Source: a virus
Lineage: Duplodnaviria > Caudoviricetes
Direction: 5' to 3' (one strand)
Length of the DNA stretch: 52,063 nucleotides
IMG/VR virus record: IMGVR_UViG_3300046812_000338
Span: 1-52,063 of that record
Position numbers and translations under genes: made by a program. Below are positions 7,145-36,337 of the stretch, piece by piece. The notes beneath the pieces were generated by a model that made no database searches, had not been told where the DNA came from, and was given only the letters and a program-made list of their open reading frames with translations. The number at the start of each line of letters is the position of its first letter. The first letter of the stretch is position 1.

Positions 7145-7666
7145 GTGCCGACCGCGATCGAGTATGACGTCGAGGGCCTGGAGCCGATCGAGCATCATCT
7201 GCTCGGCATCGGGGAGCGGGCGATCGAGACGCGCCCAATGCTGGAGATGTTCGCCGCCGACCTGGAGGCCCAGATGTCGGCCCGCTTTGAGGCCGAAGGC
7301 GAAGGCGACTGGGCGCCGCTGGCCGACTCGACGGTCGCTCGCAAGGGGTCCTCGGTGATCGGCCGCGAAACCGACGCGATGATGAACTCGCTGACCGACT
7401 CCGGGGCCGAGGGGTCCCTGCGCGAGATATTCGGCGACGAACTGGTCTTCGGCACCAACCTCGTCAACGACGACGGCTTCCCCTACCCGGTCGTCTTCAA
7501 CGACGGGTCGAAAACCGGCCAGCCTGCGCGGCCCCTCTTCAACCTCGCCCACCTGGACCTGCGCCGCTTCTCGAAGCTGGTCCAGACCTACCTGATCGCC
7601 GGCGACCGTTCGGAGTTCGGCGTCGGGTCCTTCGGCATGGGCCTCACGGTGCCCTTCGGGGCATGA
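7145..7666 (+). CDS. Virion morphogenesis/tail completion protein (Mu gpG-like)
   Basis: RFEAEG..WAPLADSTVARK and FGTN...PARP motifs. Confidence 0.75.
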   Translation: MPTAIEYDVEGLEPIEHHLLGIGERAIETRPMLEMFAADLEAQMSARFEAEGEGDWAPLADSTVARKGSSVIGRETDAMMNSLTDSGAEGSLREIFGDELVFGTNLVNDDGFPYPVVFNDGSKTGQPARPLFNLAHLDLRRFSKLVQTYLIAGDRSEFGVGSFGMGLTVPFGA

Positions 7667-27588: not shown

Positions 27589-27932
27589 GGCGCTATCTGG
27601 GAACGTGGACCCGCGGCGCGAAGACCGTCCGCATGATCGAAGCCGATGACGCCCGCGGCGCGGCGCAGGTCGCCCGCGCTCACCGGCAGGGCTGGGCGCT
27701 GCGGGAGGTCGACGCGGACTTCACGATGACCGACAACCAGGCGAAGGCCATCGGCGGCCTGACGGTGCGCGGCCTCGCCCACGACCCGACGCAGCGCGCG
27801 AGCCTCCTGCGCCACGTAGACGGCTCGCGCATCTGGACCCTTACGGTGCAGTCATTCCGCGAAGACGAGCCGCCGAGGCGCTTCCAGATCGCGCCAGACG
27901 GGGCGATCAAAGAGACGACCAACCTCGACTGA
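27585..27932 (+). CDS. Hypothetical protein (MRRYLGTW...)
   Basis: ATGA coupling. Confidence 0.6.
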   Translation: MRRYLGTWTRGAKTVRMIEADDARGAAQVARAHRQGWALREVDADFTMTDNQAKAIGGLTVRGLAHDPTQRASLLRHVDGSRIWTLTVQSFREDEPPRRFQIAPDGAIKETTNLD

Positions 27933-28771
27933 TGGCCGCGGCGGTCGCATTCGACTTCGAGGACGTCCTGCCGACCGTCCGGGGGGCGCACTCCCGCGCC
28001 AACCGAGACGACGCCGAAGAAGCGGTGCAGACCGCTGTCGCCGAGATGCTGGAAAGGGGCGAACCACTGACCGCACCCTTCGTCGTCACGAAGGCCCGGG
28101 ATCGCCTGCGGAACGCCCTTCGGCGCCGCGAGCGCGGCAACTCGTCGCTCGACGCCTTCGCCGAGGACACCGAGGACCAAGCCCCCGTCGAGCTTGCGAT
28201 CGAGGAAGTCGACTTCGACTCACACATCGCCCTCTCTGACCCGGTCACCGAGGCCCGGAGGCGGGCGGTCGAAGGAAACTGCGGGTCGTGCCGGGGGTGG
28301 ACGCCCGACAATGTCCTGATCGCGCTCCAGCACTACACCCGCGTCAACGGCCAGACCCCCGTCTACCGCGACCTCGCGGCCGATCCCAACCTGCCGCACT
28401 CAAACACCGTCAGGCGTTACCACGGCACCCTCAACAAGGCCCTAACCGCTGCGGGCCTGCGGCCCCGCAAGCACCTGATCGAGCGGCCCGAATGGACGTT
28501 CGACGAGGCTCGCGAGGCGCTGCGCGACTACGTCGCCGACAACGGCCGCCTGCCCACGGCCGTCGACCTGCGGAACGCGACTGCGATCGGGCTGCCTGCG
28601 CAGATGGTCTGCTACCGCCTCTTCGGCTCCGTCTCGCAGCAGCGTCTCGCCGAGGTCGTCTACGGCGAGGACGGCGTCCGGCTCCGCTCTGCAATCGCCA
28701 TCCTGCGGCACCCAGGGTCGGGCCAGAACGAGGACCTGGCGGCGCAACTGGCGGAGTTCTGCGGTGGCTAA
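27932..28771 (+). CDS. Sigma-region-2-like domain fused to two homing-endonuclease-associated repeats
   Basis: DDAEEAVQTA...KARDRLRNALRRR..SSLD (ECF sigma2-like); repeats WTPDNVLIAL...GQTP...RYHGTLNKALTAAG and WTFDEAREAL...GRLPT...RLFGS. Confidence 0.6.
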   Translation: MAAAVAFDFEDVLPTVRGAHSRANRDDAEEAVQTAVAEMLERGEPLTAPFVVTKARDRLRNALRRRERGNSSLDAFAEDTEDQAPVELAIEEVDFDSHIALSDPVTEARRRAVEGNCGSCRGWTPDNVLIALQHYTRVNGQTPVYRDLAADPNLPHSNTVRRYHGTLNKALTAAGLRPRKHLIERPEWTFDEAREALRDYVADNGRLPTAVDLRNATAIGLPAQMVCYRLFGSVSQQRLAEVVYGEDGVRLRSAIAILRHPGSGQNEDLAAQLAEFCGG

Positions 28772-33306: not shown

Positions 33307-33812
33307 TGTTCACCGAGGCCCTGGCGATCGCCATCGTCAAGGGCCAGAAGACGGCGACGCGGCGGCGGATCAGCGACAACCCGCGCTCGCCGTGGGCTGA
33401 ACCGACCGGGATGACGCACGATCGCACCTGGCGCTACCCGGTCGGCATGGTCTTCACCGTCAACCCCGGCCGCGGTGTCCGGCGCGTCGCCGAATGCAAG
33501 GTCACGCGCCGGCGGATCGCCGCGCTCGTCGACCTCACCGATGCCCAGGCGCAGGCCGAGGGATTCGCCCACCGCCAGGCGTTCTTCGAGGGCTGGGAGA
33601 AGATCAACGGCGGCGTCGACTTCCTCGTCGAGCGCGTCCACGTCATCGAGTTCAAGCTCGCCGGCCTGGAGTGCCTGCTCTGCGACGGTAAGCGCTACGT
33701 CGACGACCTCGGCGAGGGCCGGCAGCCCTGCCTGGACTGCTTCGAGACGGGCATCGACGTCACCCCCGAGGCGCGCGAATTGATCGCGAAGGTCGAGGCC
33801 GAAGGTGACTGA
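33303..33812 (+). CDS. ASCH domain protein with C-terminal CxxC...CxxC
   Basis: AIVKGQKTATRR and AQAEGF ASCH motifs; CLLCDG...CLDCFETG. Confidence 0.78.
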   Translation: MMFTEALAIAIVKGQKTATRRRISDNPRSPWAEPTGMTHDRTWRYPVGMVFTVNPGRGVRRVAECKVTRRRIAALVDLTDAQAQAEGFAHRQAFFEGWEKINGGVDFLVERVHVIEFKLAGLECLLCDGKRYVDDLGEGRQPCLDCFETGIDVTPEARELIAKVEAEGD

Positions 33813-34041
33813 CCCCTGGGACGATCCGATCGAGGGCGCCGAGTGGAGCGAGAAGACGCCGCCGAAGCTGACCCGCGGCGAGTACATCCGCGACGCCCGC
33901 GGGGAGCGGCTGAAGGTCCTGGCCGCCTTCCCGATCGGGGCCACCGTGCCGGTCTGGTACGTCACCGCCTACCGACCCGGCGAGGCCACGCGGCAGTCGA
34001 GCGTCGACGTCAACGAGCCGATCCCGGTGGAAGTGCGATGA
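33805..34041 (+). CDS. Hypothetical protein
   Basis: Coupled ORF. Confidence 0.55.
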   Translation: MTDPWDDPIEGAEWSEKTPPKLTRGEYIRDARGERLKVLAAFPIGATVPVWYVTAYRPGEATRQSSVDVNEPIPVEVR

Positions 34042-34229
34042 CGCCCGAGCAGTGGGAGCGCCTGCCGGGCTGGGTGCGAGTCGCCCTGACCAGGCGCATG
34101 TTCGGCCCCGACGACGTCACCGACGTCGAGTTCGAGGTCGGCGTCAACCGCGAGCCGAAGTTGATCCGGGTGAAGCTGAAGCCGCGCGTCGAGGTCATCC
34201 GCGTCGACATCGTCCGCGAGACGCCGTGA
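34038..34229 (+). CDS. Hypothetical protein (MTPEQWERL...)
   Basis: ATGA coupling. Confidence 0.55.
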   Translation: MTPEQWERLPGWVRVALTRRMFGPDDVTDVEFEVGVNREPKLIRVKLKPRVEVIRVDIVRETP

Positions 34230-34558
34230 ACGGCTGGGAGGATCACGCCGTGGCGCTCGCCAACGTCGCCGTGATCCCCACCGACCCGCCGCCCCGGCCA
34301 GACCAGCCCGACGAATCCCTACCGCAGCTGCTCGCCCGCGTCGGGCGCAGCCTCGGCGTCGAGTGGGAGGACCTGAAGGGCGCCAGCCGCCGCAAATACA
34401 TCTGCCGCGCCCGAGCGATCGCCGCCGCCGAGGCCCAGGTCGCCGGCTACTCGTCGCCGGAAATCGGCAGAGCGCTCGGCGGTCGCCACCACTCCACGAT
34501 TCTGCATGCGATCGCGTCCCTGGCGCCGCTGCACGATGGGGGCGAGACGCCGGGCTAG
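34226..34558 (+). CDS. DnaA C-terminal-like HTH protein
   Basis: DLKGASRRKYICRARAIA...SSPEIGRALGGRHHSTILHA. Confidence 0.8.
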   Translation: MNGWEDHAVALANVAVIPTDPPPRPDQPDESLPQLLARVGRSLGVEWEDLKGASRRKYICRARAIAAAEAQVAGYSSPEIGRALGGRHHSTILHAIASLAPLHDGGETPG

Positions 34559-34567
34559 GCTGCCCGT

Positions 34568-34714
34568 GTGCCTCGCCGGAATCGCAACGCGAAGAAGATC
34601 GCCAAGCGCCACACGCGCACTGGCGGCGGCTGGATGAAGGGCCGCCAGAAGAACCAGCCCGAGCGGGCGCCGCTCACCCCGGGCGCCATGCATTCCAAGA
34701 CGCGCCTGCGCTAG
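34568..34714 (+). CDS. Small basic leaderless peptide (48 aa, MPRRNRNAKKIAKRHTR...)
   Basis: TAGGCT 34556-34561 then GTG 6 nt later; stop TAG at 34712. Confidence 0.45.
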   Translation: MPRRNRNAKKIAKRHTRTGGGWMKGRQKNQPERAPLTPGAMHSKTRLR

Positions 34715-34727
34715 TCTTCGCCGCCGA

Positions 34728-34850
34728 GCGCCCATAGCTCAGTTGCCTACTGGCACCCGCGGGGGTCGACAAAAGAGCGCCGGTCACGGTGGGAGATAGC
34801 TACCCACTCAGAAACCGGAGGGCGGGGGTTTAGGCGGCCCTCTGGGCGCA
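34728..34850 (+). ncRNA. tRNA-like RNA with expanded D-loop and a hairpin in place of the anticodon loop
   Basis: Acceptor GCGCCCA/TGGGCGC+A; D-stem GCTC/GAGC; anticodon stem CCGGT/ACCGG enclosing 29 nt with GTGGG/CCCAC; T-stem GGGGG/CCCTC with a 9-nt loop. Confidence 0.7.
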
Positions 34851-34897
34851 GCCTCTTGAAAGGCCGACGCCGCGCCCCGGGGGTATACGCTCCCGGG

Positions 34898-34997
34898 GCG
34901 CACGTAGCTCAGTGGTCAACGCGGCCTGGTAATTCGGGTCGCAAAGAGCGGTGGCCTTTCAAGCCACAGGTCGCGGGTTCGATTCCCGTCGTGCGCA
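34898..34997 (+). tRNA. tRNA-Glu(TTC) with a hairpin inserted in the D-loop
   Basis: Acceptor GCGCACG/CGTGCGC; D-stem GCTC/GAGC; anticodon arm GTGGC-CTTTCAA-GCCAC (TTC at 34958-34960); AGGTC variable loop; T-arm GCGGG-TTCGATT-CCCGT. Confidence 0.8.
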
Positions 34998-35061
34998 TCC
35001 AGGCCTCGCCTCCCGCCGCCTCGCGCCCGTTCCGTCCCCGGCCCTGGTCAGAGTGCCCGTC

Positions 35062-35646
35062 ATGGACTTCGTCCCTGAGAGAGGCCCAGAGCGCTTCCGA
35101 TTCAAGGTGCCCGGCCAGGCCGCCGGGGCGGGATCGAAGAAGGCGTTCCCCGTCACCCGCGGCGACGGGTCCTTCGTCTACACGAAGGGCGGCGTCCTGC
35201 TGCTGAACTACACCCACGACTCGAAGAAGACGGCGCCGTGGATGAAGGCGGTGAAGCAGGTCGCCAAGACGGGCTGGGGCGATCGCGCCCCGCTCGACGG
35301 CCCCCTCTACGTCGACCTCTGGTTCTATGAGATGCGCCCCGCCGGCGACTACCTGAAGCGCAAGGCGGGCCGCGTCCTGCGCCCCGAGGCACCGGCCTAC
35401 CCCGACCAGACCCAGACGCACGACTACGACAAGATGCGGCGCGCGATCAGCGACTCGCTCACCCAGGCGGGCGTGATCGCCGACGACCGCCGGGTCGTGG
35501 GAGGCGAGGGCTGGAAGCTATTCGCCGACAACTTCAACCTGACCGAGCCGTTCACGGTCGTCATCGTCGGCTCGATGAACTTCACCACCGCCGAAGAGGC
35601 GGGCCTTGTCACCCCGGACCCGGCCGGGCAGGCCGCGCTGGTCTAG
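35062..35646 (+). CDS. rusA: RusA-like Holliday junction resolvase
   Basis: FKVPG...GSKK, PLDGPLYVDLWF, HDYDKMRRAISDSLTQAGVIADDRRVV. Confidence 0.8.
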   Translation: MDFVPERGPERFRFKVPGQAAGAGSKKAFPVTRGDGSFVYTKGGVLLLNYTHDSKKTAPWMKAVKQVAKTGWGDRAPLDGPLYVDLWFYEMRPAGDYLKRKAGRVLRPEAPAYPDQTQTHDYDKMRRAISDSLTQAGVIADDRRVVGGEGWKLFADNFNLTEPFTVVIVGSMNFTTAEEAGLVTPDPAGQAALV

Positions 35647-35953
35647 TCGGGCGCCGCTCCCGCCGGGGCATCAGCTGCTCGTTTCCTCCCAGCCGACCTT
35701 TCATTCGCCCCGACGACAGCGGCATCCAGAGCCGGGCGGACTAGCTGCTCTGCACCCGCGGCCCTTCGCCCCCTGCTGACCAACCGCCCCGGGAGCTAGA
35801 GCCGGCGCCCGCGCAATATGACAGCGGAATATGACGGCGGCCCCCTCTACGACGAAACGGCCCCCGTGGGAGCCGTCCGGTCGAGCGACAAAGATGCCGC
35901 CAGCGCCCCTTCCCAGAGGCGCGGCAAACCATATCGACCAGGAGGTCCCCCGC

Positions 35954-36337
35954 ATGGGAGCAGTCGCAGAGGCACCGCCCGCAGGCAAAGGCGCGGCAGG
36001 CAACGGCAACGGCGAACCGCTCGACGGCGAGCATGCCGACGAGCAGGGCACCGAGAAAAAGGCCGCGGAGAAGAAGGCCCCGGACCTGGTCCTGGAGGGC
36101 AAGGGCCAGCTGTCGCTGAAGATCGGCGGCAAAGCGCCGGACAAGGCCACGGCGAAGATGGTCGGCGGCAAGATCACGATCCCGGCCGGCGAGTACCAGC
36201 CCGGCGAGGTCATCGAGGTCGTCTCGCGGATTCAGGTCCGCAAGGTGTCGATCATCCACAAGGTCAACGACGGCGAGACGGTCGAGGTCGAGCGCGAGCA
36301 TCAGTTCAAGCTGCTCCAGATCGAGAAGGTCGACTGA
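35954..36337 (+). CDS. Hypothetical protein
   Basis: AGGAGG SD before ATG 35954 (MGAVAEAPP...). Confidence 0.65.
   Translation: MGAVAEAPPAGKGAAGNGNGEPLDGEHADEQGTEKKAAEKKAPDLVLEGKGQLSLKIGGKAPDKATAKMVGGKITIPAGEYQPGEVIEVVSRIQVRKVSIIHKVNDGETVEVEREHQFKLLQIEKVD

Follow-up and report, generated by a model that had tools for sequence, protein, structure and literature searches.

The window analysed here is a complete 52,063-bp virus record (IMGVR_UViG_3300046812_000338, Caudoviricetes) with direct terminal repeats and a G+C content of ~0.69. Within the replication/recombination module of this phage, on the plus strand, lies a tRNA-like element that we call e1 (34728-34850). It is preceded by a PD-(D/E)XK exonuclease gene, then a gene for a protein with the DnaA C-terminal domain, then a small basic open reading frame (ORF). 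It is followed, 47 nt downstream, by t2, a tRNA with the anticodon UUC, and by a gene for a RusA-like resolvase (Table 1). The initial annotation had described e1 as a tRNA mimic with hairpins grafted into both the D-loop and the anticodon loop. Our results support the view that e1 is a phage-borne, tRNA-derived element that cannot decode as an ordinary tRNA.

The e1 element and its relation to a tRNA(UUC) family

All the listed features of the cloverleaf frame were found by direct reading where the initial annotation had placed them, and a frame scanner independently recovered the frame (34728-34849, with a D-loop of 34, an anticodon loop of 29, a variable loop of 5 and a T-loop of 9 nt). The helices have the standard 7/4/5/5 bp. 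The anticodon loop, on the other hand, has 29 nt in place of 7. In the MAFFT placement it consists of 22 additional nucleotides (34785-34806) followed by the 7-nt CTCAGAA; an alternative description is C32, 26 nt and A37A38, with the 26 nt replacing U33-UUC. The sequence CTCAGAA, the final seven nucleotides of the loop, has the form of a normal anticodon loop, C-U-NNN-A-A, and stands 22 nt away from the 5' strand of the anticodon stem. In view of this 3' end, the statement that e1 has no readable anticodon needs a qualification. The CCC/GGG mini-hairpin drawn in the D-loop would close on a 2-nt loop and is not feasible. A search for the 22-nt insert as a repeated mobile hairpin, allowing up to 3 mismatches, found no further copy in the window.

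The prediction that tRNA detectors would miss e1 was borne out. ARAGORN reported 0 tRNAs in the whole window, and Rfam gave no tRNA-clan match to e1, neither to RF00005 at the gathering score (29 bits) nor at E<=10 in a search of 501 nt; e1 thus lies outside the tRNA definition of either tool. In the window Rfam finds t2 only, and a match to the Deinococcus Y RNA (17.7 bits, with a gathering score of 80) falls on t2, not on e1. Compared with ordinary tRNA genes (RF00005), e1 has the same four-helix cloverleaf with standard stems and a 5-nt variable loop, and it is placed, as phage tRNA genes are, among replication genes beside another tRNA. It differs in failing Rfam and ARAGORN, in its 29-nt anticodon loop and in lacking nucleotides of the elbow (of G18 G19 and T54 Psi55 C56...A58 in a 7-nt T-loop, it has lost G18, C56 and A58).

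The bare cloverleaf is not beyond what chance produces. At equal loop-size tolerance the window has four frames, namely e1, t2 and two on the minus strand, compared to a mean of 1.9 per window in 24 dinucleotide shuffles. The initial argument that intact stems point to selection is weak, since such frames arise at that rate in shuffled windows; the excess of changes at unpaired positions, described below, has p = 0.04 or 0.13 depending on the columns counted. In folding energy e1 is unexceptional (z = -1.41, with 20 of 200 shuffles folding equally well), while t2 stands out (z -3.9, with 0/200 shuffles as good). In the e1 ensemble, pair probabilities were ~1 for the acceptor stem, 0.5-0.9 for the anticodon stem and ~0.8-0.98 for the inner hairpin of the anticodon loop, compared to 0.49 for the D-stem and 0.18 for the canonical T-stem, with an alternative 6-bp T-stem at 0.45.

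The relation to tRNA is seen in the sequence rather than in the frame. We built a covariance model (R1) of the tRNA family to which t2 belongs. With this model e1 scored 29.5 bits (E 2e-5, whole window, filters off), while the next background match had 14.4 bits. Unrelated ordinary tRNAs score 17-58 bits with R1 and members of the family 91-116 bits, so that the score of e1 is not comparable to those of the members. We also observed stretches of near identity between e1 and chromosomal members of the family, 15/16 and 13/14 nt long (the latter 14/14 by eye to the L062 type). Judged by its sequence, e1 is derived from a tRNA.

The family has the build GCGCCnn-TA-GCTC-AGTGGTnAA-hairpin-AA(A)GAGC; its anticodon arm, variable loop and T-arm are normal, and it has A73. 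The body of e1 is the one expected of a descendant: it shares the acceptor ends GCGCCC-/-GGGCGC-A73, U8A9, the D-stem GCTC/GAGC, the string AAAGAGC, the anticodon stem CCGGT, the variable loop AGGNC, the T-stem start GGGTT and an expanded D-loop (34 nt, compared to 31-35 nt in the family). The UUC anticodon of the family, in its 7-nt loop, is missing from e1; moreover, G18, U20, C56 and A58 are changed, the T-loop has 9 nt and the D hairpin is unstable. The identity of e1 to chromosomal copies reaches 69 of 94 mapped columns (60/76 outside the hairpin), while the identity to t2 is 58 of 94 (53/76 outside the hairpin). A recent tandem duplication of t2 is thus not the source of e1, whose nearest relatives are chromosomal.

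Four lesions separate e1 from the family. First, according to the model and MAFFT alignments, either 22 nt were inserted in the anticodon loop or 26 nt replaced U33-UUC. Second, AGTGGTC in the D-loop became AGTTGCC, with the loss of G18. Third, the T-loop grew to 9 nt and lost C56 and A58, with T now at 56 and G at 58. Fourth, the family-type D hairpin, TGGCACC/GGGGTCG in e1, keeps 6/7 pairs in the model alignment, but its pair probability is ~0.01 and the family-consistent fold has -45.3 kcal/mol compared to -55.4 kcal/mol for the minimum free energy fold. The family-conserved columns that are changed in e1 are G18, U20, the next A, the anticodon, C56, R57 and A58, those in the D-loop being alignment columns 17, 19 and 21.

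Table 1. Positions of e1, its parts and the adjoining features in the 52,063-bp window
Feature	Position	Strand	Remarks
e1, tRNA-derived element, 123 nt	34728-34850	+	frame read directly and by frame scanner; 29.5 bits with family model
e1 acceptor stem, 7 bp, GCGCCCA/TGGGCGC	34728-34734/34843-34849	+	
e1 U8-A9	34735-36	+	
e1 D-stem, GCTC/GAGC	34737-40/34775-78	+	
e1 D-loop, 34 nt	34741-34774	+	degenerate homologue of the hairpin-bearing D-loop of the family
e1 anticodon stem, 5 bp, CCGGT/ACCGG	34780-84/34814-18	+	
e1 expanded anticodon loop, 29 nt	34785-34813	+	
e1 inner hairpin of anticodon loop	34788-34808	+	pair probabilities 0.78-0.98
e1 variable loop, AGGGC	34819-23	+	
e1 T-stem, GGGGG/CCCTC	34824-28/34838-42	+	one G-U
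e1 T-loop, TTTAGGCGG, 9 nt	34829-37	+	T at 56, G at 58
e1 A73	34850	+	
Inverted family-tRNA fragment in e1-t2 spacer	34855-34870	-	inverted repeat, 88% over 16 nt
12-bp hairpin, GCGCCCCGGGGG/CTCCCGGGGCGC, 6-nt loop	34872-34901	+	overlaps first 4 nt of t2
t2, tRNA(UUC), family member	34898-34997	+	Rfam tRNA, 67 bits, with 29-nt D-loop insert; 101.8 bits with R1
t2 9-bp hairpin	34921-34942	+	inserted in D-loop after G18G19U20CAA
t2 anticodon UUC	34958-34960	+	
DnaA C-terminal helix-turn-helix domain protein	34052-34558	+	upstream gene; PF08299, 50 bits
Small basic ORF, 48 aa	34568-34714	+	stops 13 nt 5' of e1; conserved in relative phage
RusA-like Holliday junction resolvase	35062-35646	+	downstream gene

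Scars at the locus and the search for orthologues

The spacer between e1 and t2 contains further pieces of tRNA. The inverted fragment matches a chromosomal copy of the family tRNA (L058) at positions 47-62 in 15 of 16 nt, with E 0.002 in that small search. It spans the 3' end of the D-stem and the 5' strand and loop of the anticodon arm, and it is complementary to the anticodon arm of t2. The 12-bp hairpin that runs into t2 resembles a minihelix of acceptor stem and T-arm, and also the T-arm of e1; only its 3' part is common to the relative phage described next, to which BLAST similarity begins at ~34879.

The only close relative of the phage is a 36.5-kb contig (L002/L010) that is ~71% complete. 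Exactly at the site of e1, spacer and t2 it has an ORF for a His-Me/HNH homing endonuclease (L002 2482-2940). Its homologue of t2 lies downstream of RusA on the opposite strand, with the D hairpin kept by compensatory changes, and e1 is absent from the whole 36.5-kb record. The suggestion that e1 and t2 form a tandem system of loop-expanded RNAs is not borne out by this arrangement: t2 is an ordinary working member of the family that in the relative stands elsewhere, on the other strand and without e1. The window itself has an HNH-associated repeat gene of homing-endonuclease type at 27932-28771. Genes of this type in both phages fit a mosaic, recombination-prone early region.

In the host loci that carry the family tRNA we found five partial 3' duplicates of it, in 4 of 100 loci (L078, L087, L090, L112). 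All of them start at the anticodon loop, which is the point of interruption in e1 and the end of the inverted fragment in the spacer. The partial 3' duplicates indicate integrated elements at both tRNA-Glu genes of the hosts, the hairpin-bearing one and the canonical one, with the hairpin tRNA gene as an integration hot spot in the host loci. Duplicates of 25 nt from the 3' end of the canonical tRNA-Glu(CUC) were seen 9-13 kb away (L234, L235).

The complete phage genome was found to have no tyrosine or serine recombinase, and a role of t2 or e1 as the phage attachment site attP was rejected, as an integrase of either class is lacking. Among 30 phage ORFs scanned in Pfam there was no RNA ligase and no RNA or splicing endonuclease. 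A promoter and terminator scan of 33800-35400 gave 0 promoters and 0 terminators, and BLAST of 34000-36000 versus 50,697 phage records gave no match. The head protease shows a distant similarity to phages of Rhodococcus, Gordonia and Arthrobacter (154 records, all <60% identity).

We searched for orthologues of e1 with four e1-derived patterns in viral contigs, one of them also in metagenome contigs, and with three scans for neighbouring proteins. Collection searches of this kind reach only exact motifs or near protein relatives, and by these means we found no orthologue. The D-arm pattern had 3 matches in viral contigs, none of them a tRNA, and 47 in metagenome contigs, of which only the one in contig L281 is tRNA-like, without being an orthologue. 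A 17-mer of the T-arm had 2 matches in viral contigs, both at the ends of protein genes, and a 19-mer of the insert had 0. The scans for RusA and the DnaA_C-like protein yielded one relative contig only among the viral contigs; in metagenome contigs a neighbour-protein scan gave 151 pattern matches, none of them a relative. BLAST of e1 in three host-type genomes produced only chance matches of 14-25 nt (E >= 0.28), and in the L002 and L006 records nothing.

The hairpin-bearing tRNA(UUC) and its apparent role in GAA decoding

A pattern derived from t2 was used to search phage contigs and a genome collection. The family build was present in 10 other phage contigs (L004/L005, L006, L007, L008, L009, L010, L017, L034, L044, L050), with a variant in L022; the G+C content of the phage contigs with the family tRNA ranges from 0.39 to 0.69. 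In the genome collection at least 120 loci matched the t2 pattern: 118 with a complete copy, one with a copy truncated where the locus stops, and one (Acetobacteraceae) by chance. The 80 titles of the listed matches name Solirubrobacterales/Solirubrobacteraceae (74), Conexibacteraceae (1), Thermoleophilia (1), 'Actinomycetes bacterium' (3) and Acetobacteraceae (1). There is exactly one copy of the tRNA in 99 of 100 host loci among the matches listed, and one copy in each of five whole genomes tested (5/5). In samples taken to gauge the distribution, the counts were 1/151 at the class level and 3/101 at the family level; these are lower bounds, as 27-41 first-look candidates were scored per genome and 5/5 known positives were recovered when 150 were scored.

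The D-loop hairpin is a regular part of this tRNA. In the alignment of 46 distinct sequences (A1), 95.9% of its cells are paired and 6 of 7 pairs are changed on both sides. For the whole structure of the family 0/500 shuffles reach the observed values, and slid controls drop to 36-50% paired. By this sequence evidence the family has conserved the additional arm, in the variable 20a/20b region, as a part of its structure. Since the hairpin covaries across the family, in chromosomes as well as in phages, it is not a graft peculiar to the phage of the window, and the D-loop expansion that the initial annotation took for a special feature of e1 is a hallmark of the whole family.

The anticodon is UUC in 44 of the 46 aligned members, the others having CCU, UGC and ACC. 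Separately, we observed the hairpin-bearing scaffold with other anticodons (CCU, UGC without G3:U70, UUU, ACC and UGU) in L004/L005, L008, L034, L075 and L124; two of these tRNAs have longer D-loop inserts, of 33 and 37 nt. In the variant of contig L022 (62-163, minus strand; 70 bits with R1), the D-loop insert resembles the 3' strand of a D-stem plus an anticodon arm with the loop CTCTAAA (CUA), while the regular anticodon loop reads GAAATAA. ARAGORN misses or miscalls the family: it made 0 calls in the window, and it labelled the tRNA of L010 'tRNA-Ala(ggc)' and that of L207 'tRNA-???(ggag)'. A full-text literature search, with subscription journals and supplements outside its reach, found no description of the family, and none is given in the accessible part of a review of non-canonical tRNAs (PMC7609411).

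The role of the family tRNA can be read from the tRNA sets of the hosts. Among the 46 tRNAs of genome G001 the canonical tRNA-Glu body has the anticodon CUC, and UUC is found on the hairpin tRNA and on one odd 71-nt tRNA (L226). Genomes G002 and G003 have a single canonical-body tRNA-Glu each, again with CUC, so that the canonical body occurs with CUC only in 3/3 host-type genomes. The odd tRNA(UUC) of G001, a Solirubrobacteraceae genome (L226/L230; G001:C1:419030-419120, minus strand), has the D-loop AATGCA, with no GG, and the T-loop CTCGTAC. G002 and G003 lack this tRNA, which may be non-ribosomal or island-borne.

Reassignment of GAA in the hosts was considered and rejected. Among aligned GAA codons in host-type loci (n=5732, drawn from related genomes and so not independent), the counterparts were GAA 2538 times and GAG 1739 times, followed by GAC, CAG and GCG. 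GAA and GAG replace one another and share one substitution spectrum, and GAA therefore means glutamate. In many Solirubrobacterales GAA appears to be decoded by the hairpin tRNA.

The codon usage of the phage stands out in GAA and AAA. In 42 mechanically picked plus-strand phage ORFs (12,390 codons), GAA makes up 411 of 921 Glu codons (0.446), compared to 1130 of 7706 (0.147) in 437 ORFs of host-type loci. AAA is likewise frequent, with 184 of 471 Lys codons (0.39) compared to 0.126, while the other A-ending codons of the phage are at the host level. A tRNA for AAA, unlike one for GAA, was not found in the phage. On a plain reading t2 supplies GAA decoding to a GAA-rich phage. The host of the phage is probably a member of the Solirubrobacterales, with the reservation that the family also occurs in phage contigs of lower G+C content.

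There is one gene for glutamyl-tRNA synthetase (GluRS) in 5/5 genomes, and a second GluRS dedicated to the hairpin tRNA was not found in them. The core of the hairpin tRNA (G001) matches the canonical tRNA-Glu(CUC) at 46 of 77 positions and Lys, Met, Arg and Val tRNAs at 57-59 of 77. Descent from tRNA-Arg(UCU) is a possibility suggested by class-level matches, 6/6 of the fetched ones with a length of 72-73 nt being tRNA-Arg(UCU); the G001 core is about equally near to the Lys, Met, Arg and Val tRNAs. With C11-G24, C13-G22 and a 5-nt variable loop, the hairpin tRNA is without the D-arm identity elements of E. coli tRNA-Glu, as far as these are set out in the available part of their description (PMC9976931).

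Origin of e1 and competing explanations

We consider e1 to be a crippled, non-decoding copy of this lineage-specific tRNA rather than a specially designed mimic, with a probability of roughly 0.55. The observations that favor this reading are the lesions in every part needed for decoding, the lack of an orthologue in the searches made, the absence of e1 from the sister phage, the tRNA debris nearby and the weak thermodynamics. What the initial annotation called a phage tRNA-derived non-coding RNA is indeed phage-borne, tRNA-derived (29.5 bits with R1) and non-decoding, but we infer that it has probably lost its function and is best read as a defunct or non-decoding copy; no result marks it as a decoy made for the purpose.

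The proposed history begins with a parent tRNA(UUC), apparently a GAA decoder, whose D-loop has an additional 7-bp hairpin in its variable part. The phage, with its heavy use of GAA, retains one working copy of it, t2, and e1 would be a second, separately derived copy of a tRNA of the parent type. In e1, 22-26 nt have entered the anticodon loop, the elbow contacts through G18, C56 and A58 have been lost, the T-loop has grown to 9 nt and the D hairpin has degenerated. The site is an intergenic spot scarred by recombination, with tRNA fragments adjoining and a homing endonuclease gene in the same place in the sister phage. If e1 is co-transcribed with its neighbours, its intact acceptor/T stack might at most offer a site for RNase P or 3' processing; on the ribosome it is unusable.

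Several observations weigh against this reading. The four cloverleaf helices of e1 have 21 of 21 pairs intact despite at least 25 differences in 94 columns from every known member. Of the columns conserved at >=90%, the paired ones have 29 matches and 2 changes (one compensated pair), while the unpaired ones have 22 matches and 9 changes. The contrast has a Fisher p = 0.043, or 0.13 without the anticodon, and changes that fall mainly on unpaired conserved columns are the pattern expected if the shape is still under selection. The lack of an orthologue, in turn, counts for little, as a single relative of the phage is known.

Moreover, such odd elements recur. An analogous tRNA frame occurs in L006, an independent phage contig of 122 kb, where it precedes the contig's own D-hairpin tRNA(UUC) by 48 nt (L006 9470-9725; ~87906-88136 of G005). 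The D-arm of this frame is normal. Its anticodon loop, of 24 nt, contains a hairpin, and its T-arm, a 6-bp stem with a 6-nt loop, is non-canonical; the frame scores 48.3 bits with R1, and two further tRNA-like fragments lie near it. A pattern made from it matched only L006 itself, and it has no insert sequence in common with e1. The metagenome contig L281 (G+C 0.70) has three aberrant tRNA-like genes with encoded CCA (176-250, 312-407 and 575-697). One of them is non-canonical in its anticodon loop, another has an enlarged D-loop that starts with AGTTGCC as in e1, and the remaining one is a 123-nt composite in which D-arm and T-arm each seem to be present twice. A similar motif of ~25 nt stands before each of the first two.

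Apart from these, we observed hairpins of 11-12 bp with acceptor-like ends followed by NCCA, similar to tRNA minihelices, in L007 (~7270-7305) and, upstream of tRNA-Pro, in L009 (minus strand). They open large phage tRNA arrays that also encode tmRNA.

The points just raised lead to the strongest alternative, possible in our view but clearly less probable than a defunct copy, in which e1 is a functional anticodon-less tRNA-like RNA that, by the acceptor/T stack and the parts of the family body that it retains, would be bound by a factor recognising the hairpin tRNA of the host. The binder might be RNase P, the single GluRS, an enzyme that modifies tRNAs or a defence protein aimed at them. Since e1 cannot enter translation, it would act as a decoy, a sponge or a processing signal. 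The intact helices, the clustering of changes in the elbow and anticodon (p 0.04 to 0.13), the analogue beside the D-hairpin tRNA in L006 and the odd genes of L281 all speak for such a role. So does the greater closeness of e1 to the chromosomal copies than to t2, as a mimic of a host molecule would show, and in host-type genomes with one GluRS gene the hairpin tRNA, as the apparent GAA decoder, would be a sensitive target. On the other hand, covariation is not measurable for want of an orthologue, the sister phage lives without e1, and the L006 analogue is a singleton too, with an unrelated insert. The family-type D hairpin, the likeliest feature for recognition, is the least stable part of e1; plain tRNA debris is found at both the e1 and the L006 loci, and no partner protein appeared among the 30 phage ORFs scanned in Pfam.

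There are known RNAs of comparable kind. The staphylococcal non-proteinogenic tRNA-Gly, which serves cell-wall synthesis, keeps the tRNA body, has lost the GG of the D-loop and the T-loop consensus and stays off the ribosome. The retained body and the two losses are common to it and e1; unlike e1, which is known from sequence alone, it keeps a normal anticodon loop, is aminoacylated and is conserved. Species 1 and 2 of the phage T4 tRNA cluster are small stable RNAs of unknown function, and YrlA is a bacterial Y-RNA-like RNA with a tRNA-like module. These are, as e1 is, non-decoding tRNA-like RNAs of phages or bacteria, but they have no sequence or Rfam similarity to it, and the topology of YrlA differs.

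A broader version, which we regard as rather improbable, would join e1, the L006 analogue and the L281 genes into an undescribed class of phage-made, anticodon-less tRNA look-alikes of high-GC Actinomycetota. Its members, on this speculative view, would copy the body of the host hairpin tRNA-Glu, be processed as tRNAs and titrate a factor that handles or attacks the single GAA decoder. That factor could conceivably be the lone GluRS, an enzyme of tRNA modification or a defence nuclease directed at tRNA.

It is quite improbable that e1 is a hybrid footprint, of the attachment-site type, left by site-specific recombination at the host hairpin tRNA gene with the insert coming from the side of the element. 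tRNA pseudogenes and partial tRNA copies do occur at the attachment sites of integrated elements. In common with such copies, e1 descends from a tRNA used as an integration hot spot, is broken at the anticodon loop and has fragments nearby. The five host duplicates begin at the very point where e1 is interrupted, the inverted 5'-side fragment of the spacer ends at the same boundary, and the closest relatives of e1 are chromosomal copies. Still, e1 is full length, and its halves pair perfectly, which would not be required of a hybrid with two origins. After classical integration the tRNA is whole again, with no 22 nt left in its loop, and the complete phage genome has neither a tyrosine nor a serine recombinase.

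Even less credible is that e1 is an interrupted working tRNA gene from which the 22-nt insert, between positions 31 and 32, is excised to leave CUCAGAA with the anticodon CAG. The form of the last seven loop nucleotides would suit this, as would the occurrence of the hairpin scaffold with several anticodons (UUC, CCU, UGC, UUU, ACC, UGU). However, 22 nt is far below the size of a group I intron, Rfam gave no match to a ribozyme or intron family, and the Pfam scan of 30 ORFs revealed no ligase or splicing endonuclease. After excision the T-loop (9 nt, no C56 or A58) and the D-loop (no G18) would still be abnormal. To our knowledge there is no small-intron splicing system in bacteria. Introns of archaeal and eukaryotic tRNAs depend on a bulge-helix-bulge motif and a splicing endonuclease, and we know of no such machinery in bacteria either. 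Short introns at non-canonical positions of these tRNAs (a subject of PMC3978253) are similar to the inserts of e1 and its family in being short, structured and placed in the D-loop or anticodon region; the D-loop insert of the hairpin family differs in that it covaries as a retained structural arm does.

Finally, a chance cloverleaf in GC-rich DNA, for which the rate of 1.9 loose frames per shuffled window and the two minus-strand frames of the real window might be cited, is effectively refuted by the R1 score (29.5 bits, E 2e-5, with the next background match at 14.4 bits), the 16-nt and 14-nt near identities to chromosomal members and the location 47 nt upstream of a true member of the family.

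Taken alone, e1 is probably a dead or idle tRNA copy, and the tRNA(UUC) family that it exposed is the more substantial result. This family, with its covarying D-loop hairpin, is widespread and apparently undescribed, and its body is so unlike that of the canonical tRNA-Glu that it raises the question of how one GluRS recognises two very different tRNA-Glu bodies. The family tRNA is also a host clue for uncultured phages, and the phage of the window pairs a GAA-rich genome with its own copy of the GAA tRNA. A functional e1 would provide a case in which a phage RNA imitates a lineage-specific host tRNA; and if the class of look-alikes were real, its members would protect or favor the phage's own GAA-rich translation.

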